From IMG/VR virus record IMGVR_UViG_2563366928_000013: a stretch of DNA of 19,587 bases; one strand, written 5' to 3'. Shown one piece after another: positions 112 to 19,050 of the stretch. The stretch is from a virus (Duplodnaviria > Heunggongvirae > Uroviricota > Caudoviricetes). Every line of letters begins with the position of its first letter. The stretch's first letter is position 1. The notes under the pieces are model-generated. The model had not been told where the DNA came from and did not search any database. It saw nothing but the letters and a program-made list of their open reading frames with translations. Both the position numbers and the translations under genes were made by a program.

Positions 112-204
112 CTGTTCTCCAATGACTAGTCTAAAAACTAGTATTAAGACTATCACTTATTTAAGTGATATTGGTTGTCTGGAGATTCAGGGGGCCAGTC
201 TAAG
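1..204 (-). mobile_element. IS2 insertion sequence, left-end portion; the element continues beyond the window start
   Basis: Reverse complement of 95-204 reads TAGACTGGCCCCCTGAATCTCCAGACAACCAATATCACTTAAATAAGTGATAGTCTTAATACTAGTTTTTAGACTAGTCATTGGAGAACAGATGATTGATGTC, which matches the IS2 left terminus and orfA start as I recall them. Terminus is at 204. Recognition is from memory, not a search. Confidence 0.8.
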
Positions 205-1029
205 GACGTTAAGCCACGTCACATTGACGACATGTTAAAAGGTATCGTTGACCGAGGAGCACCAACGATAGCAACAGATGTATTACGCTGGACACGCCGT
301 ATCTTTGACTATGGGATAAAACGCCACGCTCTGGAGATAAACCCTTGTTCAGCGTTTGAAGTATCTGATGCTGGTGGTAAAGAGGTTTCCCGCGACCGTT
401 GGCTAACTCGCGATGAGCTTATCAGGCTATTCGAGGCTATGCGCACCGCAAAAGGATTCAGCCGCCAGAACGAACTGACATTTAAGCTATTGCTGGCACT
501 ATGCGTTCGTAAGATGGAGTTATGCGCCGCACGATGGGAAGAGTTTGATTTAGATGGTGCGGTATGGCATTTGCCGGAAGAACGCAGCAAAAACGGAGAC
601 CCTATTGATATACCTCTACCTTCCCCAGCCGTTGAATGGTTGAGAGAGCTACACACCTTTTCATGTAATAGCGCATGGGTGCTTCCGGCCAGGAAGATGC
701 AAAACAGAATGATCCCACATATTCAGGAAAGCACTTTACCCGTAGCACTGGCTAAGGTTCGCGCCGAAATGCCGGATGTGCCTAATTTCACGATTCACGA
801 CTTCCGACGCACCGCACGTACTCATTTAGCAGCATTGGGTGTTGATCCTGTCGTGGCGGAACGATGCCTCAATCATCGCATTAAGGGCGTAGAGGGGATT
901 TATAACCGTCATCAGTATTTTGATGAGCGTAAAGCAGCACTGGCACAGTGGGCAGATCTGCTGGTGGCACTGGAAAGCGGGAAAGACTACAACGTAACGC
1001 CATTCGATAAAGCCCGGAGGCAAATGTGA
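205..1029 (+). pseudogene. int: P4-family tyrosine integrase, C-terminal ~274 codons; N-terminal part cut off by the IS2 insertion
   Basis: Catalytic-domain motifs are present (HDFRRTARTHLAALGVDPVVAERCLNH and the tyrosine region GIYNRHQY). The in-frame stop at 166-168 and codons 175-204 lie inside the IS2 end, so the ORF-track start at 175 (TTG) is an artefact. About 130 N-terminal residues are missing. Confidence 0.75.
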
Positions 1030-3817: not shown

Positions 3818-4878
3818 CCGTCCAGAAGAAGATATTTTCACTGGCTGGTATGTCGCCAAAATCCAGCAATATGACAGCAAAGTCAGGCATTAATACAGCA
3901 GATACAAGCAAAGTTTGTCATTTGCTGGTGGTAGGAGCGGATGCCTTAACCATGTCAGAAATTACGGTCGATGGTGTTAGCGTTGAGAAGGTCAGCGGCT
4001 GCGCCAGAGAATTTCTGGTCGTAGATGGCTTTCTCTTCTCGCGTAGTGACTCCACAAAAACCTTCGTCCATGCGCGTGACGTTAACGAAATGAGCGCGAT
4101 GTATTGTGCATCTGGTTCTTCCAATAGTGAGTTTTCGGAGTCCATAAAAAAGAGCTTGCCGTTATGCGGCAACACGGTTTATGGTTATAAGGCACCTCAT
4201 AAAACGGGTGCCGGGATTGGCGTCCTGAAAATTCGAAAGGCGACATATGACGCGCCGAGCGTCTTTTTTTATGTCGTAGGTCTGACTCACCCATTTTTTG
4301 GGCGTTGGTGTATAATCCAGCGCCTTTGTCAATCAATGGTGGCTCAGGCGGGGGCTTCTTCGGAAGCGCCGGTATCCTTCAGAGCCGGTTACGCCAACCC
4401 TGTCTGGGCTACCACCAGCGAAATTGGCGTTTCCGGTGGTAGCGTAACCCGCTATCTGAAGGAGGCTGCCACATGCTGGCTACTACCCCTACCCAAAAAC
4501 CGCAATTTATCTGGATTATCGCCGCAGTTCGCCGCGATTGCCCGACAATTACCGCCAAAATTCATCATATTGCTGCCGAGTCTGAACGCGATGCTCGCCG
4601 TTCTCTGGTGCACGATCACATCTGCTTTTTTGCTGGTCGTATCCGCATGGAGGTGGCACATGATTAAAACCTACGATGTGCATATGGACCCCCTCGAACG
4701 CACAAGCCAGATCATCACACTGACAGAAGTGATTAACGACATTCTGGTGAGCAACTCTCCCTTACGAGACGAAAGACTGAAGGCGTTACTCGCGATATTG
4801 GATCTCGCCGTTCGTGACGTTCATTTCCTGCTGGAAGGTGGCGAAATGCCAGTAAAAACGGGGGCAACCAATGAATAA
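3811..4878 (+). CDS. long open frame (355 codons) of uncertain validity; may be a real gene or a read-through across separate units
   Basis: A 356-codon stop-free frame is statistically unlikely by chance. Against it: a terminator-like hairpin plus T7 at 4249-4270 and a TATAAT at 4311-4316 sit inside it, and a strong GGAGGTG RBS precedes an internal ATG at 4660. Confidence 0.3.
4249..4270 (+). terminator. candidate intrinsic terminator (5-bp GC stem, 5-nt loop, T7 run)
   Basis: GACGC-GCCGA-GCGTC followed by TTTTTTT, read directly from the sequence. Confidence 0.35.
4473..4667 (+). CDS. small hypothetical protein, 64 aa; alternative to the long 3811 frame
   Basis: GGAGG at 4461-4465 with 7-nt spacing to the ATG; stop overlaps the ATG at 4660 of the next small ORF. 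Could be spurious. Confidence 0.3.
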   Translation: MLATTPTQKPQFIWIIAAVRRDCPTITAKIHHIAAESERDARRSLVHDHICFFAGRIRMEVAHD

Positions 4879-6150: not shown

Positions 6151-8502
6151 ATGCGAAACATTGATCTTATCCGTCAGGTTATCAGTGCGTCTGAAAACAA
6201 CTGGCCTCATGTGCTGGGCTGCCTGAACATAAATGTCCCTGACTCTCCGCGCCGTCATGCTCCCTGCCCTGCATGTGGGGGCAAAGATCGATTCCGGTTC
6301 GATGACAACGGGCGCGGTAGCTTCATCTGTAATCAGTGCGGCGCTGGTGATGGGCTGGATTTAATTAAACGCGTAAATAACTGCGACACAACAGAGGCGG
6401 CGCTTCTTGCCGCTGATGTTCTGGGTATTGATTACCGGACAACGGAAACACCAGAAGCCACCAGCCAGAAACGGGAACAACTGGAAACCGAGCGCCAGCG
6501 ACGCGAACAGGAGCGCCTGAAAAGGGCAGAGAAGGACGAACAACAAAGACGGGATACGTTTTCCCGTCAGTTTGATGACATGCGCAGAAAGGCTGTAAAC
6601 GGCAAATCTGATTATCTGGTTGCGAAAGGGGTAGGTGATTTTACATTCCCCGTGTTGCCCGATGGATCTCTGTTGCTGGCGCTGGTGGATAAATCCGGCG
6701 CAGTCACAGCAGCACAGACTATTACCTCACATGGTGAAAAAAGACTCCTGACAGGTTCGGCAAAGCGGGGGGCATATCACGCCATAAACGCACAGAAACG
6801 ACCTCACAGCATCATAATTGCTGAGGGGGTGGCTACCGCCCTGTCGTGCCATTTAATTCGCCCTGACGCAATGACAGTGGCAGCAATCGACGCTGGCAAC
6901 CTGTTGCCAGTAGCGGAAGTCATGCGCAGAACATATCCGCAGGCACAAATCATCATTGCCGCAGATAACGATCACCAGCAAGGAGACTCAGAAAGTGGAG
7001 GGATCAACACGGGGAAAGATGCCGCAGAGAGGGCCGCTATTTCCGTAGCTGGCAGGGTGTCTCTGCCACCGACTGACTATAAAGCCGACTGGAACGACTA
7101 TCACCAACAACACGGGCTGGCGGCAGCCACAGCAGCATTTAAAGATTCGATGTACCAGCCACGGGGGAAAGGGGCGCAGGTGAAAAATCACAAACAGTCA
7201 GTCGGGGCGCTGAATGAGATCAGTTCTGGCGAGGTGTTAAGCGATGATGAAATTGCTGTCCTCGAAGAAATCAACCGGACGTTTACGCATGTCACCATCG
7301 GCGGGAAACACAAGGTGGTGTCGCTAAAGCCTTCTCAAACCGGCGGTGTATCGCACGTTTTCGAGGATTTATCACAATTTCAGCATTATTTTCATCATAA
7401 ACCGAGAGTCGCCAGAAAGCTGGCGGGATCGGCGTGGCTGTCATGGAGTGGGAAGAACTACAAGCCAGGAGGCGTAGGATTTTATCCAGTACCAGACAAA
7501 TGCCCTGACGATGTTTTTAATCTGTATGAGGGGCTGGCACTGGAACCAATTGAAGGAGATTGCACGGTATACCTTAATCACCTGTTGCAGGTTGTCTGTG
7601 CCGGTAATGAAGAGGCATACCAATATCTTATCCAGTGGATGGCGCACATTATCCAAAAGCCTGATGAAAAACCGTCCGTGGCAATCGTGATGAAATCTGT
7701 CCCGGGCACAGGGAAAGGCACAACGGTTAAACCGCTGCTGCAAATACTGGGGCAGTACGCCGCCCACATTAACGGGGCGGGACATATTTCAGGGCGCTTC
7801 AATTCAATACTTGCTAACAAGCTACTGGTATTTGCTGACGAAGTGACGATCCACAAGCCGTCTGAAGCTGACAGACTTAAAGCGATTATTAGCGAACCGA
7901 CGTTTAACCTTGAGCGCAAGGGAATTGATGCTGAACCAATGCCGAATTTTGCCCGGTTGATATTTGCCAGTAACAGCACACAGGTATTACAGGCAGGGAT
8001 AAGAGAGCGTCGCTATCTCGTGCTTGAGCCATCTCCTGAAAAAGCACAGAGCCGGGAGTATTTTGATCGGCTGTACAGTTGGCTTAATGATGGCGGTGCC
8101 GCAAAGTTGCTTTGGCATCTTAAAGGGGTGGATCTCTCAGGTTTTGACCCTCAACGAGCGCCACAGACCGATGCCTTACGTGAAGAAATCTTGCTGGGGC
8201 TGTCTGGCGTTGAATTGTTTCTTTATGGCGAGCTAATCAATGAACCTCCGTTTAATGGCGAAGTCCGTTTGTTTGCAAAGGATATGGTTAGTCGGTTTGT
8301 AGCGTGGTCGCTTGAGCGTGGGGAAAAGCTTAAAGAACCAGCTGCCAGATCACTACTGGGTAAATCACTTGCACAAATGGGGCTGGTGAAGCATGGAAGA
8401 CCAGACCGAGGGAATGGCGTGTTCTACGAACTACCAGAGGTCGGAGTTCTACAGGCTGCGTTTGCCCGTCTGATCGGTATGGGGGGTTATGATGTTTTTT
8501 AA
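6151..8502 (+). CDS. P4 alpha-type bifunctional primase-helicase (783 aa)
   Basis: N-terminal zinc-binding CPACGGKDRFRF...CNQCGAGDG, a TOPRIM-like IIAEGVATALS...DND segment, and a C-terminal P-loop NTPase with Walker A VPGTGKGTT and Walker B LLVFADEV. RBS GGGGG 6 nt before the ATG. Confidence 0.85.
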   Translation: MRNIDLIRQVISASENNWPHVLGCLNINVPDSPRRHAPCPACGGKDRFRFDDNGRGSFICNQCGAGDGLDLIKRVNNCDTTEAALLAADVLGIDYRTTETPEATSQKREQLETERQRREQERLKRAEKDEQQRRDTFSRQFDDMRRKAVNGKSDYLVAKGVGDFTFPVLPDGSLLLALVDKSGAVTAAQTITSHGEKRLLTGSAKRGAYHAINAQKRPHSIIIAEGVATALSCHLIRPDAMTVAAIDAGNLLPVAEVMRRTYPQAQIIIAADNDHQQGDSESGGINTGKDAAERAAISVAGRVSLPPTDYKADWNDYHQQHGLAAATAAFKDSMYQPRGKGAQVKNHKQSVGALNEISSGEVLSDDEIAVLEEINRTFTHVTIGGKHKVVSLKPSQTGGVSHVFEDLSQFQHYFHHKPRVARKLAGSAWLSWSGKNYKPGGVGFYPVPDKCPDDVFNLYEGLALEPIEGDCTVYLNHLLQVVCAGNEEAYQYLIQWMAHIIQKPDEKPSVAIVMKSVPGTGKGTTVKPLLQILGQYAAHINGAGHISGRFNSILANKLLVFADEVTIHKPSEADRLKAIISEPTFNLERKGIDAEPMPNFARLIFASNSTQVLQAGIRERRYLVLEPSPEKAQSREYFDRLYSWLNDGGAAKLLWHLKGVDLSGFDPQRAPQTDALREEILLGLSGVELFLYGELINEPPFNGEVRLFAKDMVSRFVAWSLERGEKLKEPAARSLLGKSLAQMGLVKHGRPDRGNGVFYELPEVGVLQAAFARLIGMGGYDVF

Positions 8503-8531
8503 TATAGTCTTTTTACAAGAAGATCGTTTTT

Positions 8532-8635
8532 ACCTGTACCACCTATACCACTTTGCTAATTCATCATTAAAAACAATGTGTTATAGTGGTACAGGTCAAT
8601 ATCTTACCTATACCAGACCTGTACCACCTATACCA
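8532..8635. repeat. iteron cluster 1 just downstream of the primase: ACCTGTACCACCTATACCA twice direct (8532-8550, 8617-8635) plus an inverted core TGGTACAGGT (8587-8596)
   Basis: Exact repeats read from the sequence, in non-coding DNA at the primase 3' end; candidate ori-like site. Confidence 0.6.
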
Positions 8636-8678
8636 TTAACAAACGCATTTCTTCTGGCTGGCTGAGAGGGAACAACCA

Positions 8679-8909
8679 ATGATGAGCACACCATTTTACA
8701 AAGTGCGCCAGTTAGCTTCTTCCTCTGGCTGGCAGCTACGGTTTGAGGGGCGTTCAGACTGGCTACCCATTGCGGCATGGGCGAATGTTGAAATGTGTAT
8801 TGACGGCGATACCGTTGAAATCATTATTCCCTGCGTGGCAAGTCGGGACGGCTGTATAGAGCCAACAGATATGGCAGCAGAAATCAGAGAGGTAAAACAT
8901 GAGCAATAA
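8679..8909 (+). CDS. hypothetical protein, 76 aa
   Basis: RBS GAGAGGGA upstream; overlaps the next gene by 11 nt. Confidence 0.45.
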   Translation: MMSTPFYKVRQLASSSGWQLRFEGRSDWLPIAAWANVEMCIDGDTVEIIIPCVASRDGCIEPTDMAAEIREVKHEQ

Positions 8910-9636
8910 CTATTGCATACCGCAGGGAATGACCAGAACGGAGCGCGAAGAATTAAAAAGTTTCGCTACACAGTGCGGGAATGCTGGCGACATCCAAAGT
9001 CTGGAACGCACTTTAATTATGATTGCGCACTGGATGCGTCAGGGGCAAAGGGTTTCATTTACTGAATATGCCAGCCAGTGGACAGAGGCACAGCGCGAAC
9101 GGAGCGACGGTAATCACTCAACACCCGAAATGGCGAAGCAATGGCCTTTCAGTGGTAAACGCTGTATCAGTCCCGGTGGTTCAGATTATTACCCTGCTGG
9201 TGTGGGAGATGAGCCATGTTGTGACGAGACTGAAATCCGCCACGCAGTGACAGTAATTACCGCTGAATACCCACAATTTAACCTTGACGGACTGGCGCTC
9301 CACAACCGGAATGCGGACTGGGAAAAACCGCTTGATAACCCGTCATTTATCGTATCGGCGAAAAGCTGCCTGAGATGGATCAGAGACAACGGGATGAGTA
9401 ATGCCCAGATTGAGAGCTTCCCGCAGGATAACCCCACATCTGACACGTTGAAGCATGAAGTGGAGCGATATAACCAGATAAACCACCAGCACAGTGATCA
9501 CCCGCACTATATCCCCAACGGAGCATTTATTGCGGCGATGGTGGCAAGCGGCTACAAGGTTAAGCCAGCGGGAAGAATGAACGCATTTTTCAATATTTCA
9601 AAAAAGGGATTATGTGCTGCTATGAGTAAAAATTAA
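8899..9636 (+). CDS. hypothetical protein, 245 aa
   Basis: GAGG RBS 7 nt before the ATG; coding-like length and composition. No recognisable motif. Confidence 0.55.
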   Translation: MSNNYCIPQGMTRTEREELKSFATQCGNAGDIQSLERTLIMIAHWMRQGQRVSFTEYASQWTEAQRERSDGNHSTPEMAKQWPFSGKRCISPGGSDYYPAGVGDEPCCDETEIRHAVTVITAEYPQFNLDGLALHNRNADWEKPLDNPSFIVSAKSCLRWIRDNGMSNAQIESFPQDNPTSDTLKHEVERYNQINHQHSDHPHYIPNGAFIAAMVASGYKVKPAGRMNAFFNISKKGLCAAMSKN

Positions 9637-9641
9637 ATAAA

Positions 9642-9746
9642 TGGTACAGGTCTGTACAGGTGGGGAGAGGTCATTTTTACCCACCTGTACCACCTGCAGG
9701 CCGCGCCACACAAGGGTTTGTGACATGGTGGTACAGGTGGTACAGC
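9642..9746. repeat. iteron cluster 2: at least four copies of the same GGTACAGGT / ACCTGTACC core in both orientations (9642-9651, 9652-9663, 9683-9692, 9729-9746)
   Basis: Same core as cluster 1, about 1.1 kb away; candidate crr-like second site. Confidence 0.6.
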
Positions 9747-10110
9747 AAAAACAGCGATTTTCTTTATAAGGTATGTTTTGCTCATCTGGCAGACGGAGGT
9801 ATTCGCTGCGGTTTGGCACGTAGCCCAGAACAGCAAAGAGTTTTACGAGACTTTTGTAAAATCCAGTGTACAAGGGCGTGACGTTTTTGAAGGAGAGACC
9901 TACGAAATTTTCGTAGTTCAAAAAATAGCCTCTGAGATGTTGTTATGCCTGTTCAGCAAACCATCCGCATAGCTGATCGCGAATCAAATTACCAATGGAG
10001 CCAGAAGCAAGGGCAGAACTGAAAAGCACCTGCCGTGAAGAGTAATGCGACACCATAAATATAGTTTTTAGAGTCCATAAAAAACCTGTCAAAACCTGAC
10101 ATACAGAACG

Positions 10111-10143
10111 ATGCCACCAGCTACTGAACGGTGGCATTTTTTT
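10111..10143 (+). terminator. intrinsic terminator (8-bp stem ATGCCACC/GGTGGCAT, then T7)
   Basis: Read directly; closes the replication-module transcript before the cargo cassette. Confidence 0.6.
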
Positions 10144-10238
10144 GTGCTATTTGTTTCATATTTTGCAATCACAATGATGAATATTGCGTTTTATGAAACT
10201 ATAATGACTGTTGTTTTATACAGTTCTAAGGGGGCGTT

Positions 10239-10412
10239 ATGGCTATTTCAGTAAAGCCGGTATTGATAAGTGAGAAGCAAATGGAAGCGATAAAGAAAAT
10301 TCAGGAGGAGCAGCGTAAAAAATCAGAGGTAGGAGTTGCGCCAACGATCCACGAAATTGCTCGGGGATTAATGGATAAGGCGCTGGCTTACACTTTAACT
10401 GGACGTGGGTAA
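10239..10412 (+). CDS. small hypothetical protein, 57 aa, possible DNA-binding regulator; first gene of the cargo cassette
   Basis: RBS AAGGGGG before the ATG; below the ORF-track size cutoff. Strand-then-helix pattern (VKPVLIS then EKQMEAIKKIQEEQ) is loosely ribbon-helix-helix-like, which is inference only. Confidence 0.35.
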   Translation: MAISVKPVLISEKQMEAIKKIQEEQRKKSEVGVAPTIHEIARGLMDKALAYTLTGRG

Positions 10413-10416
10413 ATCA

Positions 10417-11760
10417 ATGGCTACGTGGCAACAGGGTATTAATTCTGGTGGGTTTCTTGCTGGCATCGGTGCGCAAAATGAGAATGCGCCAAAGGCAAGC
10501 GACATTAACGCAACGCTTGGTCTGATCCGCGAAAACAATGAATTGGCTCGATCAGGTGCAAATAACGTTGCTCTGACAGGTCTTCGTGGTCTGGCTGGAG
10601 TTGCTGATATTTATAAGCAGCAGCAACAGCAGGAACGTAAAGCAGCATTCCAGAAAGGTTATGCGGATGCTTATGCGTCCGGCGACAGGGAGCAGATGCG
10701 TAATCTTATTACAGCATTCCCCGAAGAGTTTGAGGAAGTCCGTAAAGGCATGGGGTATGTCGATGACGCCCAGCGGGATGATTATGGCAATCTGGCGCTC
10801 AAAGCACAGGTAGCCTCATCGCTTGGTCCGGGCGCATTTGGCAGGTTCATGATGGATAATGAGCAGGAGATGCGTCGTTTAGGTATCCCTCCAGAAACTA
10901 TTGCTGAAATGCAGGTTAATGACCCGCAGGGCTTCCAGCATTTCGCAGGTAATCTGGCGCTGTTTTCTCTCGGTCATGAGAAGTACTTCGATATCAAAGA
11001 TCGAATGGAAGGCCGTCGACTTGAGCAAGGGCGACTGGATGAAAGTATGCGTCAGGCTGACATGGAGAACGCGAGAGGATGGGCAAATATCCAGAACGCT
11101 CAACTAGACAGGGCTCAGCGGGCACAAATTCACTCAGATGAGATGGGATTGAAGCTAATGGAGCTGGGGCAAAAAGGTAAGCCGTCAGCAGACTTAATTA
11201 AGGGATTAAATTCTGATATTACCAATTTTGGCAAAAATTATAACTCTGTCAGAGCGGCAGCAAACTCTCTGCAAGCCCTTAGCAAGGTAAATACTGGCGC
11301 TGCCCAACTTGGGATTATCTTCAACTACATGAAATCTCTTGACCCGCAGTCAGTCGTTCGTGAAGGCGAACAGGTTCAGGTAATGCGGTCTGATGGCATA
11401 TGGGGACAAATCAAAGGTTACATAGACCAGCTTAATGCTGGAAACGGCCTGTCGCAGGAGGCAAAGGATAACATTGTTAACGCCGCAAAAATCAACGCCA
11501 ATGCTATGGGGCAGCAGTTTAACCAGCAGGTTGACGAATATCTCGATACATATGGAGAAACCATTCCTCAGGGGCTAAGAAAAAGCCTTGAAAGAAGGAA
11601 AGCGAAGCTATTTGACGATGTTTCCGGGCAGCCTACATCACAGGCTGGCACTGGGCAGGCAAAAGCGGCAACCGGAGGAATATCAGAAGGCGCAACGGCA
11701 ACCAACCCTAAAACTGGTCAGAAAATTATTTACAGGAACGGAAAATGGCAGCAAATGTAA
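10417..11760 (+). CDS. hypothetical protein, about 447 aa, Gln/Asn/Ala/Gly-rich with predicted coiled-coil; no enzymatic motif seen
   Basis: Long ORF; ATG at 10417 is in frame with the ORF-track GTG at 10405. No Walker or nuclease motifs found by eye. Stop overlaps the start of the next gene. Confidence 0.6.
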   Translation: MATWQQGINSGGFLAGIGAQNENAPKASDINATLGLIRENNELARSGANNVALTGLRGLAGVADIYKQQQQQERKAAFQKGYADAYASGDREQMRNLITAFPEEFEEVRKGMGYVDDAQRDDYGNLALKAQVASSLGPGAFGRFMMDNEQEMRRLGIPPETIAEMQVNDPQGFQHFAGNLALFSLGHEKYFDIKDRMEGRRLEQGRLDESMRQADMENARGWANIQNAQLDRAQRAQIHSDEMGLKLMELGQKGKPSADLIKGLNSDITNFGKNYNSVRAAANSLQALSKVNTGAAQLGIIFNYMKSLDPQSVVREGEQVQVMRSDGIWGQIKGYIDQLNAGNGLSQEAKDNIVNAAKINANAMGQQFNQQVDEYLDTYGETIPQGLRKSLERRKAKLFDDVSGQPTSQAGTGQAKAATGGISEGATATNPKTGQKIIYRNGKWQQM

Positions 11761-13862
11761 TCTTACCGGAAGGTTTTGTGCTCGATGAACAACCTGATAA
11801 CTCACAGTTTCCTGATAGTTCACAGCTTCCTGATGGTTTTGTGCTTGATGCCCAACCAGAACAGCAGCAATCACCTTTGGTTTCACCATGGGAAAATTCC
11901 AGACAGGAAAATGTTGTTAATAATGCTAACGGTTTCGACCGTTTTATGTATGGCGTTCTCAGTGGATTGATGGATGTTGGTAAAGGTGTTGGCCTGTTTC
12001 AGGATATGACACCAGAAGAGCAAGCCGCAATTCAGTCTCTACAGCAGAAGTTAGCGGCAAAACCATCAACCGCACAAGATGTTGGTGAGTTCGTTGGACA
12101 AGCAGCACCATTTGTTAGTGGTGGTGGGATTATTTCTCAGGTTCCGAAAGGGGCGGCAAGGCTGGCTGCCGCCGCAGGGCTTGGTGCTGGAGAAGGGGCT
12201 ATTGTAGCCAATGGAACAAATAGCGATGTTGCTTCCGGCGCTGCTATTGGCGCTGTGGCTGGCCCTGTAGCCGAACTTGCTGGCCCTGCAATTAATAAAA
12301 TAGCTGGGAAATTAACCAAGAAGAATGTTTCTTCGATTCCAGATATTGAGGGGATTACTCCTGCCGAAGAGAAAATTCGTAAGTTATCTGCACAAGGCAA
12401 CCCAAATCTTGCCTCTTCGCTTGAAGGGCTAGATCTAAAACCTCAGAAAGAAATTGTTGAGGCTGCAAATAGGCTTCATGTTGATTCAGTTCTTCCTTCT
12501 CATTTTTCAGGAAATGAGCAATACCAAGCTGTAGAGCAAGCCCTAAAGTCACGGACAGGATCAGCGTTAAAAGCTCAAGAAGATAAAGCAATAAGCGAAT
12601 TAGCCTCTAGTGCTGGCAAGATAATCAATGATGTTGCTGGTGCGCCAGATGCGTTAGCTATGAGCGAAAAATATATTTATCAGATAAATAGTAGAATGGA
12701 AGCACTAAAAAACCGTAGTGATCAGTTATATAAACGTGTTGATTCCGCTCTATCACCAAGAACAAAAGTCGAAGCAAATAACACAAGCACTATGCTGGAA
12801 AAAATCGCTGATGATTTAGGTGGGTGGGATAATCTTGACCCAATAGAAAAGCGAGTTTTTACAGCAATAAACCCCGGCCCAGATAGCATCCTAACGTATG
12901 CAAATTTAAACAGGCAAAGGCGTTTAGTTGGTGATGCCCTAAATAAAAAGCAGGGGCCATACAAAGATGCTGATAAAGAAGCGCTATCAAGACTATATGG
13001 AGCTTTAGCTGAAGACCAAAAATCTGTCTTATCCAATACTGGATACTTGCGAGATTTCGAAGTCGCACAACGCCTTGTAGCTATGAGAAAAAACTTAGAA
13101 AGGCAAATGGTAAATCTTCGCGGGAAAACACTTAATGGGGATATAGCGTATAAAGTAACGAATTCTCTTCAATCTATGGCAAAAGGTGATGCGAGAGGGT
13201 TTCGTGAGATTATGCAAAATACTCCATCAAGAACATTGCGAAGGGAGCTAGTAGGAACAGCATTAAGAGATATGCTTTCCTCTGGAAAGCGCGGGGCCGA
13301 CTTTAATCCATCTGGCTTTGCAGATTGGTGGCAAAACTTGCAACACAGTGGACAGCTAAAGACTTTGGCTGAACATTTGCCAAAAGAAACAATGAGCGGA
13401 CTATATGATGTATACAAAGTTGCCAGAGCAATAAAAAATGCTAAAGCGCATGAAATATCTACTGGTAAGCTGAATGAGTTTGTAAACAGATTTAATCGGG
13501 TAACAGCTCCATACGAACTAGCAGCAAAACACATTCAAAAAATAGGCACGATGATAGGCGCTCATTTTGGATCGCTTGGAGCCATTGCTGGGGCTGATAT
13601 TGGAGCAAGATTGGCGAGTAAAGCTCGATTAGCTGGTGGAGCAGGGGCGGCTGATGCTGCGGATAAATTAATTGCCTCGCCAGCCTTCCAGAGCGCAGTA
13701 AAAAATCTACACGGAAAAGCGCCTGGGCACATTGTTGATTCACGTATTAGGCGCTCCCCTCAATGGAAGAGTTTTTTTAACTCTCTTCCTGAACAGGAAA
13801 AACGGACCATCGCCCGACTGGGCATCATTACTTGGCTATCTAATGATCCAGATAATGACTAG
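11745..13862 (+). CDS. hypothetical protein, 705 aa; N-terminal PEGFVLDEQP / PDGFVLDAQP duplication, two Gly/Ala-rich glycine-zipper-like segments, long helical middle
   Basis: ATG at 11745 overlaps the upstream gene by 16 nt. Composition read from the translation; no P-loop or catalytic motif recognised. Confidence 0.65.
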   Translation: MAANVILPEGFVLDEQPDNSQFPDSSQLPDGFVLDAQPEQQQSPLVSPWENSRQENVVNNANGFDRFMYGVLSGLMDVGKGVGLFQDMTPEEQAAIQSLQQKLAAKPSTAQDVGEFVGQAAPFVSGGGIISQVPKGAARLAAAAGLGAGEGAIVANGTNSDVASGAAIGAVAGPVAELAGPAINKIAGKLTKKNVSSIPDIEGITPAEEKIRKLSAQGNPNLASSLEGLDLKPQKEIVEAANRLHVDSVLPSHFSGNEQYQAVEQALKSRTGSALKAQEDKAISELASSAGKIINDVAGAPDALAMSEKYIYQINSRMEALKNRSDQLYKRVDSALSPRTKVEANNTSTMLEKIADDLGGWDNLDPIEKRVFTAINPGPDSILTYANLNRQRRLVGDALNKKQGPYKDADKEALSRLYGALAEDQKSVLSNTGYLRDFEVAQRLVAMRKNLERQMVNLRGKTLNGDIAYKVTNSLQSMAKGDARGFREIMQNTPSRTLRRELVGTALRDMLSSGKRGADFNPSGFADWWQNLQHSGQLKTLAEHLPKETMSGLYDVYKVARAIKNAKAHEISTGKLNEFVNRFNRVTAPYELAAKHIQKIGTMIGAHFGSLGAIAGADIGARLASKARLAGGAGAADAADKLIASPAFQSAVKNLHGKAPGHIVDSRIRRSPQWKSFFNSLPEQEKRTIARLGIITWLSNDPDND

Positions 13863-13881: not shown

Positions 13882-14238
13882 TCAATCTTTATTCTTTGAA
13901 ATAGAGTCATTGATCTTTTCGAAACACCAATGAAATCCACAAAAGAGAGCTACACCAATATAACAATACAAAACTATCAACCACCTTTCAGTGTCCGAAG
14001 GGTAAAAAACATCAATTATATAAGCAACACCAATTGGTATTAATGCTAGTAATAACATCGACATAGGACGTACAAACTTCTGAACTATATCAATTTTATA
14101 GAACCACAAGGCGGTATGTTTAATGATATAAGTAAAGATGGCTGCGCCAATAATGGCAAAAAACACCATCGATAAGGTCGGGTATAACTTTGCGACAATT
14201 AAACCCAACAAAATAATTATAACTGCCTGCCCCCTCAC
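13882..14238 (-). CDS. small hydrophobic membrane protein, 118 aa, about 3-4 predicted TM helices
   Basis: GTG start with AAGGGGG RBS on the minus strand; hydrophobic runs IIILLGLIV, VFFAIIGAAIFTYII, LLLALIPIGVAYII, IVLYCYIGVALF. Convergent with the 705-aa gene, 19-bp gap. Confidence 0.5.
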   Translation of the reverse strand: MRGQAVIIILLGLIVAKLYPTLSMVFFAIIGAAIFTYIIKHTALWFYKIDIVQKFVRPMSMLLLALIPIGVAYIIDVFYPSDTERWLIVLYCYIGVALFCGFHWCFEKINDSISKNKD

Positions 14239-14353
14239 ACCAACCCCCTTTAGCGTTGTTTAGAATGGCAATCATCATATATCCAAGACATGGCATTTGG
14301 TACATAGCTTGGGTCGGGATTTCAAATCCGCCCCCAGTTGATGGGGCCGTTAC

Positions 14354-14727
14354 AGTACGCGCATATCCGCTTTATGTGAAACAGGAAGATTTTTCTGATA
14401 TCACTGCCACAGCAAAACACCAATTTCGTGACCAGTACGCGCGCGAGGGGTATCAGTTGCAAAAAGTTTTGCAACTACGTCCGACCAGTACGCGCACGAT
14501 GGAGGGGAGTACCATGAAACTGTTCTCTACACGAGACAGAGTGGTGGTGATGTGTTGATTATCGGCGTATATGCGCACAGGACGCGCTATGACGATGTTT
14601 TATGCGGGTACACCAATCACATGTATCTGGTGTGATAAATCGCGTTACATGACCTCTCTGTTGTGCTGGTGGTTATCACGACGTTCTGAATCTGGCCTTT
14701 GCCTGATATTTTGCGACAAGTACGCGC
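14354..14727 (+). repeat. array of AGTACGCGC-core direct repeats (14354, 14434, 14487, 14719) with an embedded 20-bp palindrome (14456-14475) and a second repeated motif ATTATCGG..GCGTAT (14558, 14741)
   Basis: Exact 9-mer four times on one strand within about 375 bp; extended motif GAC(C/A)AGTACGCGC(G/A)CG. Lies between the membrane gene and Abi_2; local GC is higher than the flanks. Confidence 0.5.
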
Positions 14728-15107
14728 GCGTAGCATCGAAATTATCGGATGGCGTATGCTGCTGGCAATATGAAGACCGATAGTATTAACCGAAAAGCGA
14801 TTAAGGAGTGCCAACTTTTCAGTAGAGAAACTAGACAGCATAGGAAAATGTAGAAATTACCCAATTAATAGGTAAAAGTTATTGACACAGCCTGTAGTGG
14901 ATAACGATATGAATAAAAACCACATATAGTGGTTTTTCGTGAGTGATGATAGTACCTATGTTAGTTTCCTAAGTAACTGTGCATTGACATGTGGATAACT
15001 TCGGATAGAGTTACAGGCAACCGAGCCCGATCCTCTGTTTCTCCGCCGCCGATTTCAGGCATGTGAGTTTCACGGTCGGGCCTTTTATTATCTTTTGTTT
15101 CGCCACT

Positions 15108-16085
15108 ATGATTGCCGCAAAGCCTCATAAGGACTATCACGAATTGCTAGGATTGCTACTTGAACGTGGCATGATTATCAATGATCGAAATCGTGCGATA
15201 CGTAAGCTGTCGCAGGTTGGATATTATCGATTGTCAGGTTTTTGGTACCCATCAAGAATTATTGCGACAACAGATAAAGGTCTTTCGTACAGAACAGACC
15301 GATTTCTTACTGGTACCAGTTTCGAGAAGACGTACGATCTATATCTTTTTGACAAAAAACTGCGTCTTTTGATGATTGATGCTATCGAAAGAATAGAGAT
15401 TCATGTTCGTTCAGTCATCGCGCATGAGGTTGGTCGCAATGATCCACTTGCCTACATGTCATCAAAATACATTAATCCAAAATTCTCATCTGCCTTCGAG
15501 CATTGGGTGTATAAGCAAAAAGTAAAATTAGACGAAAGCAGAGATGACTGTATTGAATGGCATCGAAGCCAAGGCAAGGAGATTCCATTTTGGGTGGCGG
15601 TGGAGACCTGGGATTTTGGTCAGATGTCTAAATATTATGCGATGCTTAATGGTCATATGCAGGGGAAAATTATACGTCGTTTTGGCATTGATAATAAGCA
15701 GACATTTGCAAAATGGTTGAAGTGCCTTAATCTCATAAGGAATCGTTGCGCTCACCATTCCAGAATATGGAATAGAAAGCATCCCCGAGTTCCAGTACCG
15801 GATAATGAATACTTTGACGGACTTAATCTCCATCCAGAGAGTTGCGAGAGGATTTTTAGCGCGATCTGTATTATCTGGTACTTAGTTAAACGACTTGGTC
15901 CGGGATCAACATGGCTTCGGCAAATTGCAGACCTTATTGACTCTAAACCAAATGTTCCCGGATGTGGATATGATTCAATGGGTTTACCTGCTAAAGGATT
16001 CCCACGAGAGAGATTCTCTCAGGACTTAGGTTTTGTTATCGCCGACAACGACCCTGTAGCTGAAGGGCGGAAAGGGAGCGATTGA
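15108..16085 (+). CDS. Abi_2-family abortive-infection protein (AbiD/AbiF-like), about 325 aa
   Basis: Motifs LSQVGYYRLSGFWYP, IERIEIHVRSVIAHE and NLIRNRCAHHSRIWNR match the Abi_2 family as recalled. ATG at 15108 preferred over the ORF-track GTG at 15063; no clear SD at either. Confidence 0.55.
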   Translation: MIAAKPHKDYHELLGLLLERGMIINDRNRAIRKLSQVGYYRLSGFWYPSRIIATTDKGLSYRTDRFLTGTSFEKTYDLYLFDKKLRLLMIDAIERIEIHVRSVIAHEVGRNDPLAYMSSKYINPKFSSAFEHWVYKQKVKLDESRDDCIEWHRSQGKEIPFWVAVETWDFGQMSKYYAMLNGHMQGKIIRRFGIDNKQTFAKWLKCLNLIRNRCAHHSRIWNRKHPRVPVPDNEYFDGLNLHPESCERIFSAICIIWYLVKRLGPGSTWLRQIADLIDSKPNVPGCGYDSMGLPAKGFPRERFSQDLGFVIADNDPVAEGRKGSD

Positions 16086-16114
16086 GCGATAAATATCATT
16101 TATACACTGATCAA

Positions 16115-16555
16115 TTACTGAAGCAGCGTATTGATTCTTTTAATATTGTTACCCTGACGCTTCCACGCGCTGTAAATGTCTTTATCCCACGCTTTACCAG
16201 CTTTTGTTTGGTAGCCTGCTTCATTGAGCCGTTCAGCTATCACACGCCCATTATCAAATCCCTGTCGGATGGTATCGGCAATGATCTTTATAACTGCCGT
16301 TTCGTTATATGGCTTTGGTGGGGTGTTCGGCTTTCCGGCAATAAGCGATGCTGCGGCTTTTTCCATGCGCTCCACCAGCCCAAGCATTCGTGAATCAATA
16401 GACTTTTCCGGCTGTCCCAGCTTCATGCGAATCGCATCAACAAGCCAGGAGGTTTTATCCCCTCCAGAAGCGAGAACAGACCGATTAAACTCATCCTGCA
16501 ATTCAGATGGGATGCGGAACGCGATCAGATTAGATTTGCTCATTGCAAAGACCAT
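16115..16555 (-). CDS. putative DNA-binding protein, 146 aa: RHH-like N-terminus and recombinase-domain-like C-terminal segment
   Basis: N-terminus SKSNLIAFRIPSELQDEFNRS is strand-helix like; C-terminus VIAERLNEAGYQTKAGKAWDKDIYSAWKRQ resembles the IA..LN..G..T..G..W pattern of recombinase DNA-binding domains. Convergent with Abi_2, 29-bp gap. Confidence 0.45.
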   Translation of the reverse strand: MVFAMSKSNLIAFRIPSELQDEFNRSVLASGGDKTSWLVDAIRMKLGQPEKSIDSRMLGLVERMEKAAASLIAGKPNTPPKPYNETAVIKIIADTIRQGFDNGRVIAERLNEAGYQTKAGKAWDKDIYSAWKRQGNNIKRINTLLQ

Positions 16556-16657
16556 ATCAGTGAGTAATATCCATACAGTATACCACTGTATAACACTGTT
16601 ATACGCTCAAATATCAGCCAGAAAATAACGGACCAATCGCAAATCTATCGCTGTGTT

Positions 16658-16778
16658 GTTGGTTCAGAGCTGGGCTGTGTTGGTTCAAAATGAGTTGATG
16701 TTGGTTCAATATTTTAGAAAAAACACAATAAAAACAACGCTCTTTACAAATTGAACCAACTGAACCAACTGAACCAAC
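16658..16778. promoter_or_regulatory. operator-like iteron array: GTTGGTTCA at 16658, 16679, 16700 (21-bp phasing) and three tandem reverse-complement copies TGAACCAAC at 16752-16778
   Basis: Exact repeats read from the sequence, in the divergent intergenic region between the 146-aa gene and the PerC-like gene. Confidence 0.55.
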
Positions 16779-16814
16779 ACCTTTTTGCTTATCTATATAA
16801 TCTGAGAGGCAGAA

Positions 16815-17102
16815 ATGATAAAGGACAGGAAAGCTGAAGAGCTGGAGTCAAAAGGGCTATACCGGAGAGCTGCCGCACGATGGGCAGAAGTCATGATGCT
16901 GGCAGATGGCGATAAAGAACGTGAACATGCAGCAAACAGACGCTCTGAATGTATCCGTAAGGCGGCACGCCCACCAGCAACTACAGACAGATTCGGAGAT
17001 TTAAGACAGGCAGTTAAGCGGACTCATTCGGCTCTTGGTATGGATGAGGAAGCGAGAGGGTACTTCAGGCGTTATCGCGATAAAGATTGCCAGAGACAGT
17101 AA
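16815..17102 (+). CDS. PerC-family transcriptional activator-like protein, 95 aa
   Basis: N-terminus KAEELESKGLYRRAAARWAEVM resembles the PerC/Pch family as recalled; GAGAGG RBS 5-6 nt upstream. Confidence 0.45.
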   Translation: MIKDRKAEELESKGLYRRAAARWAEVMMLADGDKEREHAANRRSECIRKAARPPATTDRFGDLRQAVKRTHSALGMDEEARGYFRRYRDKDCQRQ

Positions 17103-17214
17103 TGCTCTCTCTGTTTTGGCAAATTACCCCTCACTTTGAAGGGAGCGGAGCTATAAAAATGGTTTTAGGTACATTCCTCAAATTGAGGATTGTGGGAAAA
17201 CCAATGAGTTAGGC

Positions 17215-17235
17215 TTTTCCCCCAATGGGGGTTTT
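17215..17235. terminator. short GC hairpin CCCCCAATGGGGG flanked by T runs on both sides; candidate bidirectional terminator
   Basis: Read directly; about 110 bp after the PerC-like stop. Confidence 0.4.
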
Positions 17236-17664
17236 CGAAAGAATCAATGGGTTAGTCCATCGTGCAAATTTGCACCCTGCCAGCCAACGCAATTTCTCGT
17301 TGGCGAAAATATCAGGTATTTACTGAACGAACGGTCTACCAGTCTGTTCAGTTACCAGTTGCATATGGCTGTTTCATGTGAGAACGGAGGTTTTTTCGGA
17401 CATCACTATTGGGTACAGCAATTTCACGAGCAATACGCGCGCGCAGGACAACAAGCCTGAACATGGTTACACACCTCGATCGTGAGGGATGTAGGCAATG
17501 GCTTCTGACCAAAGCACCCGAAAAAACCGTGTACATAAGGGTGTACATAATCAAAAATCGCATTAGGAAGAAACCAGCTACAATGCGGCATTGAAGCCAA
17601 TACTCTACAAACAGATTCAACATTGAATAACTCGTAACGCCAATTCTTACTTTTCAGCCTTCAC

Positions 17665-17829: not shown

Positions 17830-19050
17830 TCAGTACGCCATATTCAGTTTCCCATAGTGGAACATAACTCCCAGTTTAAAGCGTTCCCGGTTTCGGTATC
17901 CCCTGGCCTTTATCCTCAGCAGTCTGATCTTGCTGTTCAGCGCCTCCGCATTTCCATTCGAGACGCGATGACGCATTGCATTCAGTATTCCGTATAACCG
18001 TTTTTTAATGGTTTTCGCTGCGTTTTTCATCATCGGCACATCACATTCAGACGCCAGCGATATCCACTGCAACCAGTCATTCCTGCGTTCTGTGCTCCAG
18101 GGGCGATCCCAGATATTTTTTGCCAGCTCTTTCAGTGTCCAGCACTGGCTTGTCTGTTGCATCTGTTCCCGCAACCACATCAGCTTTTCCTGCCGGGACT
18201 CAGTCATCCATTTGTCGCTGTACTGCCACAGGAAGCGGGTACCTTTGGCCTGACGACGACTTTCAACAGGGAGGTGCGGATGTTCATTCTGGCGGGTTTT
18301 ATCAACCACTTCGCCCAGTTGCTTCGCCACATGGAAGCGATCGAAGGCGATTTTCTCGACCGCATTGGGTAAATGGATACGCGCTGCTCTTATATAGCCC
18401 GCATTCATGTCCATCGACAGTGTTTTGATGGCCAACAACTGACTGTCAGTAAGCGAACGGAGATAGCTGGCAAGACTCTCTGTGCCACGATCATCGGTTA
18501 ATGCCAGTGCCCGCCCGTCGCGATCAGATACCACGGTTATATACCTATGCCCTTTTTTAAAGGCGACTTCGTCTACATTCATATGACGCACTGATAAAGG
18601 CTTTTTAATCCGCGACAGGCCTCGCTTAACCGCGCGGGTCATGATGCCGTCAACGGCATTCCAGCTAAGTTTAAGTTGTTTTCTGACCGCATCAACGGTG
18701 CTGATTTTAAGCCATGAGAGCACGAACGATTCGAACAGCAGAGTGTACCGACTGCCGGAACCTGCCCACGGTACAGGCAGAGTCTGGCAGCCATGCTCCG
18801 GGCACATAACGCGGGGAACATCGGCTTCTACTAATGTCATGAACTGGCAGGTATCAAGGTGGCGCCATTTACGATGTCGGTGATCGTGAACAGAACAGGA
18901 TTTCCTGCAGGTCGGACAGGTTAACTGAGTATTTTCAGCAATTCCGACTGTAACAGTAACGGAACCTGCATTTTCATCGAGGGTAAGGGATTTAACCTGC
19001 CATGGTGCAGTCAGGTTAAGGATATGGGCATAGAGGGATTTTTCGTCCAT
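17830..19050 (-). CDS. ISL3-family transposase, 406 aa
   Basis: N-terminal zinc-finger region CPTCRKSCSVHDHRHRKWRHLDTCQFMTLVEADVPRVMCPEHGCQTLPVPWA and overall size fit the ISL3 family as recalled. IS boundaries and terminal inverted repeats were not resolved. Confidence 0.7.
   Translation of the reverse strand: MDEKSLYAHILNLTAPWQVKSLTLDENAGSVTVTVGIAENTQLTCPTCRKSCSVHDHRHRKWRHLDTCQFMTLVEADVPRVMCPEHGCQTLPVPWAGSGSRYTLLFESFVLSWLKISTVDAVRKQLKLSWNAVDGIMTRAVKRGLSRIKKPLSVRHMNVDEVAFKKGHRYITVVSDRDGRALALTDDRGTESLASYLRSLTDSQLLAIKTLSMDMNAGYIRAARIHLPNAVEKIAFDRFHVAKQLGEVVDKTRQNEHPHLPVESRRQAKGTRFLWQYSDKWMTESRQEKLMWLREQMQQTSQCWTLKELAKNIWDRPWSTERRNDWLQWISLASECDVPMMKNAAKTIKKRLYGILNAMRHRVSNGNAEALNSKIRLLRIKARGYRNRERFKLGVMFHYGKLNMAY

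Follow-up and report, generated by a model that had tools for sequence, protein, structure and literature searches.

A Probable Half of a PICI Replication-Origin Module, Parted from Its Helicase, Directly Upstream of perC in an EcCIMP1-Like Island of Escherichia coli

Introduction

The replication origins of phage-inducible chromosomal islands (PICIs) in Gram-negative bacteria always consist of two iteron sets that flank an AT-rich region (PMC6092414). In the island EcCICFT073, the pri-ori segment drives plasmid replication, and deletion of the ori impairs replication (PMC6092414; Fillol-Salom et al. 2018); the dependence of the satellite P4 on its alpha protein and ori is mentioned in the same paper (PMC6092414). 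In the SaPI origins, 6–12 iterons follow rep immediately and surround an AT-rich centre, with two or more of them on each side and in opposite directions; these iterons are recognised by a C-terminal winged helix of the SaPI Rep protein, a hexamer being thought to load on each side (PMC9371898). A third system of relevance here is EcCIMP1, a validated PICI of E. coli MP1 that is mobilised by the P22-like phage Kapi1 (PMC11773190; Pick et al. 2025). Its PerC-like gene silences LEE1, and its origin is not described in its paper (PMC11773190).

In this study, we compare with these systems a viral record of 19,587 nucleotides (IMG/VR record IMGVR_UViG_2563366928_000013), hereafter called “the window”, in which an array of six short repeats lies between two divergently transcribed genes, one for an RHH-like protein and one for a PerC-family protein. 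According to the original prediction, the repeats are operators to which the RHH-like protein and/or PerC bind cooperatively, controlling a divergent promoter pair and possibly acting as a switch for the adjacent Abi_2 region. We consider another reading probable: the array would be one half of a PICI replication-origin module, the binding site of a DUF927 helicase that the island has lost, and a less conspicuous cluster nearby would be the separate operator of the RHH protein.

The Island and Its Repeat Array

The window is an EcCIMP1-like PICI. It is identical to an E. coli island located between yicC and dinD (L002), whose gene order is integrase (split by IS3), AlpA-like HTH, AntA/B antirepressor, Ash, primase-helicase, P22-like DNA-ejection proteins, Abi_2, a 146-aa protein, PerC, and ISEc53. 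The genes for int, the AlpA-type regulator, and the primase are co-oriented, PerC stands at the far end, and virion and lysis modules are absent, as judged from the L002 annotation and the comparison with EcCIMP1. Because the integrase is interrupted by IS3 in the L002 annotation, the mobility of this copy is doubtful. EcCIMP1 has int, AlpA-like HTH, antirepressor, Ash, primase, P22-like DNA-transfer proteins, and PerC in the same order; it is inserted at thrW, whereas the window island lies at yicC-dinD and contains Abi_2 and the 146-aa RHH-like protein (RHH146), and the two PerC proteins are ~53% identical. A close relative, L001, is inserted at thrW in O26. Among the E. coli complete genomes, 65 have a place that covers at least 80% of the primase-to-perC stretch of the window, and 103 have one that covers as much of the corresponding stretch of L001, which includes a DUF927 helicase. 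A tRNA scan of the window gave zero hits.

The genes around the array are those named in the original prediction: Abi_2 (15063–16085), the 146-aa protein on the minus strand (16115–16555), whose N-terminus is RHH-like and whose C-terminal domain is helical and conserved, and the PerC-family gene on the plus strand (16815–17102; Pfam PF06069, E 3e-33). The geometry had been described correctly as well. Three exact copies of GTTGGTTCA occupy 16658–16666, 16679–16687, and 16700–16708 on the plus strand (together 16658–16708), with a start-to-start distance of 21 bp, and they would represent the inner arm of the origin module. They are followed by a 43-bp spacer (16709–16751; ~45 bp in the original prediction) with a GC content of 21%, compared with 46% for the window, which is the presumed melting region and which ends in a conserved TCTTTACAAAT. 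Beyond it, three head-to-tail copies on the minus strand (16752–16778; TGAACCAAC on the plus strand) would form the outer arm. In other words, two opposed sets of three exact 9-mers converge on an AT-rich spacer, as in the described origins.

These six are the only exact copies in the 19.6-kb window; all of them fall inside one 121-bp stretch, and there is no seventh. When up to one mismatch is allowed, the window contains 12 matches against an expectation of 4.95 ± 2.1, and 0 of 200 shuffles reach 12. A 40-kb copy of the locus likewise has six exact copies, against 0.43 expected.

Two Inverted Modules and the DUF927 Helicase Genes

When the intergenic region by itself was used as the query of a sensitive search, it proved to be a mosaic. 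In many E. coli loci, such as L003 and L004, the match starts only at the first or second iteron, and in these perC is present and the 146-aa gene is absent; other loci match only the left part of the region. The two weakest matches, L005 and L006, have neither the 146-aa gene nor perC. They are capsid-encoding satellites in which the iterons lie directly 3' of TOPRIM/DUF927 primase-helicase genes, and two modules are contiguous there within ~300 bp. Module A consists of tandem GTTGGTTCA copies, an AT-rich stretch, and spaced inverted copies; module B consists of GTTGGTTCA copies at 21-bp spacing, an AT-rich stretch, and tandem inverted copies. The array in the window is a module B.

The tandem set of module A adjoins the helicase stop codon in L001, L005, L006, and EcCIMP1. 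In L001, module A follows immediately after the primase gene (11802–11921) and module B lies 8.4 kb further on, before perC; in EcCIMP1, module A starts 26 bp past the primase stop, and 37 bp separate the end of module B from the start of perC. The two clusters are ~8.4 kb apart and mutually inverted in both islands, and an alignment identifies module A of L001 as an inverted paralogue of B, including a ATTTGTAAAG beside the tandem repeats. There are two arrangements: in the compact satellites, A and its inverted paralogue B adjoin each other just behind the helicase gene, and in the EcCIMP1-type islands A remains by the helicase gene and B is found ~8 kb off, directly upstream of perC, with cargo between them. 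The unit of module B and perC occurs in EcCIMP1, and also in loci without the RHH gene.

Pattern scans of genome and viral collections yielded ~110 true arrays, in Escherichia, Erwinia, Pantoea, Rosenbergiella, Rahnella, Pectobacterium, Leclercia, Cedecea, Serratia, Citrobacter, and numerous viral contigs. The geometry of module B is exact in 16 different sequences, which represent six genera: the spacers measure 12 nt, the AT-rich gap measures 43 nt, and the 9-mers beyond it stand in tandem. The length of the 12-nt spacers is invariant in this set, yet their sequence is conserved at just 61%. About 80 of the ~110 arrays begin no more than a few tens of bp from the point where a DUF927 helicase gene ends, and the helicases beside them are 62–100% identical. 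Because loci selected by their repeats are a biased sample, the reverse test was also made, using 80 viral-contig loci picked by helicase protein similarity only. At least four exact copies were present within 400 bp of the stop codon in 70 of these 80 loci, the first copy 21–37 bp past the helicase stop, and 72 of the 80 had no copies outside that 400-bp stretch. A distant case is a contig of Pelosinus propionicus, whose DUF927 helicase is only 24% identical (E 2e-16) and is followed, immediately after its stop codon, by nine GTTGGTTCA copies with a very AT-rich core; DNA similarity between this contig and the other array loci is absent.

Repeats as short as these, present in both orientations and close to an end of an integrative element, could also be arm-type sites of an integrase, or an attachment or packaging element of another kind at the island's right end. 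The chance of this is negligible in our view, since arrays elsewhere are located mid-element beside helicase genes, and the integrases and insertion sites that they accompany differ, the site being thrW for L001 and EcCIMP1 and yicC-dinD for the window. Moreover, perC and ~290 bp of shared island sequence separate the array from the point at which the window and L001 diverge. Repeats of that kind would sit in the att arms and travel with the integrase, and these arrays do neither.

Iteron Sequence and the Helicase C-Terminus

Several loci (L277, L291, L292–294, and L296) have the same architecture in the same place with other iterons, namely CGTGGTTCA, ACTTRTCCCA, or GTGGGTTAY. We compared their helicases with those of the GTTGGTTCA class, all identities being measured against L254. 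In the GTTGGTTCA class (L263, L295, and L333), the protein body is 70–82% identical and the last 70 residues are 73–78% identical; the motif SGRG[YF]QRKSPRI[DQ]GRQ is retained even at 70% body identity. In the exception loci, the body is 78–81% identical overall, and the tail either falls to 37–58% identity or shows the change of SGRGYQRK to DGQRFQQK. This change is found in L277 (iteron CGTGGTTCA; body 81%, last 70 residues 78%). For L292 and L296 (GTGGGTTAY), the values are 78–79% for the body and 57–58% for the last 70 residues, and for L291 (ACTTRTCCCA) they are 80% and 37.5%. In other words, four iteron classes correspond to four classes of helicase tail in the relatives of the island.

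From this covariation, together with the Pelosinus case, it follows that the iterons pair with the C-terminus of the helicase. An array that tracks the 3' end of the DUF927 gene and co-varies with the C-terminus of its product has, as far as such comparisons can tell, the signature of a replication origin; and because the same layout recurs after helicase genes and the iterons change with the last ~70 residues, we interpret it as a Rep-bound origin module. Two opposed 9-bp iteron sets around an AT-rich melting region would constitute the module, and a DUF927-type primase-helicase would bind it through its C-terminal DNA-binding tail; primase-helicases of this type are relatives of the self-loading SaPI Rep helicases. 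The DUF927 protein matches the PDB entries 8tch, “Pathogenicity island protein” (E 3e-15), and 5dgk, “Active helicase”.

The likeness to the SaPI ori/Rep system includes the opposed iterons, the AT-rich centre, the position after rep (in the homologues), a specificity that resides in the C-terminal part of the protein, and the matches of the DUF927 helicases to 8tch and 5dgk. On the other hand, the iterons are 9 bp long compared with 5–6 bp in the SaPIs, the GTTGGTTCA elements are Gram-negative, and the doubled, inverted layout of A and B, sometimes split by 8 kb of cargo, differs from the SaPI arrangement. We also read the EcCICFT073 locus directly and found tandem CTGTCTACC copies right after the primase stop, an AT-rich gap, and inverted copies, with a PerC gene ~1 kb downstream. 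The homologues of the window module share the position and design of this pri-ori; the differences are that the iteron is CTGTCTACC rather than GTTGGTTCA, that the protein is a “DNA primase family protein” rather than a DUF927 helicase, and that the window module is detached from any cognate rep gene. The kind of origin is thus already known, and the GTTGGTTCA class of iterons was not found described in the literature searched: among the papers listed by a search for the 9-mer in both orientations, the matches were all to primers or shRNAs without relation to it, and the supplements of the Gram-negative PICI paper (PMC6092414) hold no iteron sequences in text form.

A Separate Operator Cluster of the RHH-Like Protein

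RHH proteins commonly bind short tandem repeats. This fact, the location of the array between divergently transcribed regulator genes, and the presence of RHH146 homologues next to the array in Pantoea, Erwinia, Rosenbergiella, and Chimaeribacter all speak for the operator reading of the original prediction. We nevertheless judge it very improbable that the six repeats are operators for cooperative binding by RHH and/or PerC at divergent promoters with a switch for Abi_2, on the basis of the following observations: (i) arrays without the RHH gene exist in L003, L004, L005, and L006, arrays without perC in L005, L006, L026, and others, and arrays without both RHH146 and PerC in dozens of loci; (ii) RHH146 and its ACTGTATA operator exist without the array in L157, L171, and L204; (iii) the iterons are invariant across two classes of RHH beta-strand, and it is another repeat that co-varies with these; (iv) the iterons co-vary with the helicase tail; and (v) neither repeat is found upstream of Abi_2. 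What stands of the earlier claim is a conserved multi-site array, putatively bound by protein; the regulator switch is not supported.

The other repeat is the composite cluster TACAGTATA-CC-ACTGTATA-AC-ACTGTTATAC at 16574–16604, which is single in the window, lies 19 bp from the annotated start (ATG) of the minus-strand gene, and overlaps -10-like hexamers on the minus strand. A palindromic cluster beside the start of this gene had been predicted as part of the control region, and both its presence and its role as a regulatory site of the minus-strand gene receive support, the latter because the site switches with the beta-strand of the RHH protein. In seven loci with the beta-strand SNL[IV]AFR, a ACAGTATA/ACTGTATA cluster stands just upstream of the RHH gene; it is near-identical to the window cluster in six of the seven, L157 having a rearranged variant, and in three of the seven (L157, L171, and L204) the operator is present and iterons nearby are absent. 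In seven further loci with the beta-strand SLSVTFR, the site is GTAAGACA-NN-GTAAGACA or a near variant, and the adjoining GTTGGTTCA arrays are unchanged. Because the cluster co-varies with the beta-strand across these 14 loci and occurs without iterons, it is likely to behave as the protein's own autoregulatory operator, an element separate from the iterons. Co-occurrence and covariation with a regulator are therefore seen for the ACTGTATA cluster with RHH146, and not for GTTGGTTCA.

It should be mentioned that the RHH assignment is an inference, for which there are three grounds: the pattern of the sequence, a label in one database, and the covariation with the operator. The family comprises 369 RHH146 homologues; every one with a named organism belongs to the Enterobacterales, one source label reads “Arc-like”, and no Pfam domain was detected in any of the 369. 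The PDB contains no sequence relatives of RHH146, PHROG gave one weak match, the AlphaFold model is confident for the C-terminal domain only, and a Foldseek search of the PDB with this model returned nothing below E 0.1. Since the family alignment begins at Met5, the true start of the 146-aa protein is probably the ATG at 16543. The cluster resembles the P22 Arc/Mnt operators in that a short repeated or palindromic site lies ~20–50 bp from the start of an RHH-like gene and changes when the DNA-reading beta-strand changes, whereas RHH146 has an extra conserved C-terminal domain with no Pfam match; the likeness concerns the 16574–16604 cluster only, the fold of RHH146 being confirmed neither by the model nor by the fold search.

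With respect to Abi_2, its gene reads towards the array region, its promoter is ~1.5 kb away, and a scan of the window found neither repeat type upstream of it, so that the proposed Abi_2 switch is not borne out, and no link of the array to Abi_2 was found. Three related candidates were rejected on similar grounds: a centromere of the ParG/omega type for the RHH protein, because arrays exist without an RHH gene; PerC autoregulation, because arrays exist without perC; and control of Abi_2, because there are no repeats upstream of that gene.

A Replaced Helicase Cassette and an Orphaned Module

The primase-helicase of the window (6151–8502, plus strand) is itself a mosaic. Its Zn-ribbon/Toprim half has 86% protein identity to that of L001, and its C-terminal half is of the DUF5906 type, with no similarity to the DUF927 half that goes with GTTGGTTCA. 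From 27 bp after the primase stop, a first resident iteron array, ACCT[G/A]TACCA (8529–8635), is arranged as a tandem pair, an AT-rich gap, and inverted plus direct copies; this array is the presumptive origin of the island itself. A second resident array of the same iterons (ACCTGTACCA/TGGTACAGGT; 9642–9745) follows 1 kb beyond the first. Because only identical copies or proteins of <30% identity were retrieved as relatives of the DUF5906 half, the pairing with ACCTRTACCA cannot be generalised.

The BLAST breakpoints relative to L001 are at 7172 and 9837 of the window. The swapped cassette (7173–9836) holds the helicase half, its iterons, including the 8529–8635 array, and two ORFs, and positions 14234–17391, including module B and perC, are 97% identical to L001. 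EcCIMP1 keeps the DUF927 helicase and module A, whereas the window has the DUF5906 cassette with different iterons. As read from these breakpoints, recombination replaced the DUF927 half and module A with the cassette, that is, with a DUF5906 half and ACCTRTACCA iterons. A tblastn search of the window found no DUF927 remnant, and hence no cognate Rep in the same element. Since the DUF927 half and module A are lost, module B is orphaned from its cognate helicase, and its occupation would require a GTTGGTTCA-specific Rep from a second island present in that cell.

Objections to the origin reading can be raised at this point. The array in the window does not follow a rep gene; it is flanked by the RHH gene and perC, at a distance of 8.1 kb from the primase stop (8502). 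With the module 8 kb from the primase and no cognate helicase present, origin function in the window should not be assumed. Furthermore, RHH146 homologues in other genera also adjoin module B; this adjacency is conserved, though each also occurs apart from the other.

Possible Roles of the Module Beside perC

A further objection is that module B always stands beside a gene start with a conserved TATATA block, and a transcriptional role, either in addition to or instead of the origin role, is possible. A TATATAAT block abuts the last iteron, and the conserved block TTTTTGCTTATCTATATAAT (16782–16801, plus strand) lies between this iteron and the ribosome-binding site of perC. A similar TTTTG-N-TATATA block is found behind the tandem iterons of each of the four iteron classes, and in most loci a gene starts 35–45 bp beyond these iterons. 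The block contains a perfect TATAAT at 16796–16801, with no -35 apart from the iteron sequence. It is possible that 16782–16801 includes the -10 region for perC and that the -35 position lies inside the iterons, which may in this way overlap a weak perC promoter. A promoter/terminator scan of 16400–17400 found no consensus promoter, so that a perC promoter at this place is putative.

These features allow a dual use of module B, as a Rep site that also gates the perC promoter, so that Rep on the -35 tandem iterons would couple perC to the induction of the island. Module B remains with perC in EcCIMP1, L001, L003, and L004; a gene starts 35–45 bp past the last tandem iteron in most loci; and the conservation of TTTTG-N-TATATA in four iteron classes, with the TATAAT and its -35 only in the iterons, also fits. 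We regard this reading as possible, although rather doubtful: besides the missing consensus promoter, the TATAAT is too near to the ATG, such that a transcript from there would be without a Shine-Dalgarno sequence, and the block may equally belong to the unwinding region.

In the satellite P4, a second iteron cluster, crr, lies kilobases from ori (~4.5 kb) and is needed in cis by the alpha protein. By analogy, module B could be an auxiliary cis element, either crr-like or a plasmid-type iteron control locus that titrates or handcuffs Rep. The two clusters 8.4 kb apart in L001 and EcCIMP1 recall P4 ori and crr, and the resident DUF5906 replicon of the window too has two clusters, 1 kb apart. 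Set against this, B alone has what is published for SaPI origins (opposed iterons and an AT-rich centre), and A and B are contiguous in the compact satellites. We hold a purely auxiliary function to be conceivable, with a low probability. The P4 comparison extends to the protein, a primase-helicase with origin recognition in its C-terminus, and the Zn-ribbon/Toprim/DUF5906 architecture of the window primase is typical of alpha-like proteins; two clusters of the same iteron kilobases apart are seen both in L001/EcCIMP1 (A and B) and in the window (8529 and 9642). The iterons, however, are unrelated in sequence to those of P4, and the island is PICI-like and without sid, psu, and delta. As for GTTGGTTCA, the window has a single cluster and no cognate helicase, unlike the bipartite arrangement of P4.

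To return to the origin module, B could be a second origin, a locus like P4 crr or plasmid inc, a Rep-gated promoter, or, in this island, a relic of recent recombination. The comparisons above show the position, anatomy, and conservation of the module, the covariation of iteron and helicase tail, and the cassette swap; binding by the helicase tail, firing as an origin, and any effect on perC are inferred from them.

Conclusions

The main interest of the locus lies in an orphaned or split origin module and in a code that relates the helicase tail to the iteron. From sequence comparison, the origin and the iteron code of the widespread EcCIMP1-type PICIs can be defined, and the four helicase-tail variants with their four iterons provide a natural specificity table that points to the recognition segment of the DUF927 helicases. 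The window further shows that a helicase half and its presumptive origin are exchanged as a single cassette, and that the second, inverted origin module, which is joined to perC in the EcCIMP1-type islands, can become orphaned. There is also a lesson for annotation: a tidy array between divergent regulators invites the label “operator”, and here the true RHH operator would be the neighbouring, less conspicuous cluster.

Finally, I may speculate on why the module stays beside perC. It could be more than the remnant of an origin, namely a conserved landing pad at which a GTTGGTTCA-specific Rep, either the island's own or that of a co-resident satellite, controls perC and/or amplifies the cargo. 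This is an unlikely proposal. If it is true, islands that have lost the cognate helicase would respond to other PICIs with which they share a cell, or be incompatible with them, and cross-talk between satellites would be tied to a regulator family that modulates the LEE virulence genes.

A resident iteron system and a mosaic primase-helicase

The primase-helicase gene of the window (6151-8502) is mosaic. It shares the Toprim half with L001, the close relative of this phage-inducible chromosomal island (PICI) located at thrW in an O26 genome, and the breakpoints relative to L001 lie near positions 7172 and 9837. The helicase half, the iterons behind it, and two ORFs were swapped as a single cassette, replacing the DUF927 half and module A (the opposed 9-bp iterons that follow the helicase gene) of L001. 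The iterons within this cassette, ACCT[G/A]TACCA, begin 27 bp after the stop codon of the DUF5906 primase-helicase gene and form a first array (8529-8635), in which tandem and inverted copies flank an AT-rich gap; 1 kb further on they recur in a second array (9642-9745). They are unrelated to the iterons of module B, the set that precedes perC, and represent a second iteron system in the window. These arrays presumably constitute the island's own origin.

In Pelosinus propionicus, nine exact GTTGGTTCA iterons surround a very AT-rich core on a 2.5-kb contig (976-1288), directly 3' of a DUF927-like helicase gene whose product is 24% identical to that of E. coli. Apart from the iterons, DNA similarity between this contig and the E. 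coli loci is absent. The Pelosinus iterons reflect either a deeply conserved recognition code or contamination or transfer.

Immunity RNAs and the neighborhood of RHH146

Within the region annotated as an Ash-family gene, isrK (4192-4269; 67.9 bits) and the C4 antisense RNA (4332-4419; 79.9 bits) both match their Rfam models above the gathering score. Together they make up an immunity RNA module of the P1/P4 type, which has also been described in other PICIs.

The genes for Abi_2 and RHH146, the 146-aa protein with an RHH-like N-terminus, are convergent, lying tail to tail with 30 bp between them (15063-16555). The pairing is seen again in another locus, L204 (10486-11957), with protein identities of 50% and 71%, respectively; in some loci with RHH146, no Abi_2 homologue was detected. 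In Pantoea coffeiphila (L046, 4438-6400), a unit of module B and an RHH146 homologue is duplicated in tandem with a period of 1251 bp.

Mobility and the helper phage

ISEc53 of the ISL3 family (17830-19050) is inserted just outside the right end of the island. In L002, where the locus is identical, the annotation shows the island's integrase interrupted by an IS3 element (window 175-1029; L002 2026-4630). The copy in the window is probably immobile. In the O26 genome, the PICI is directly followed by a second element (L001, 21665-33284) with genes for a major capsid protein and a baseplate protein and with an integrase of its own; two elements thus stand in tandem at thrW.

It should be mentioned that this satellite island itself encodes P22-type DNA-ejection proteins, namely an Inj_translocase and a 705-aa DNA-transfer protein (10405-13862, and also 9989-10400). 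Their presence fits the finding that EcCIMP1, the PICI of E. coli MP1, has a P22-like phage, Kapi1, as its helper.
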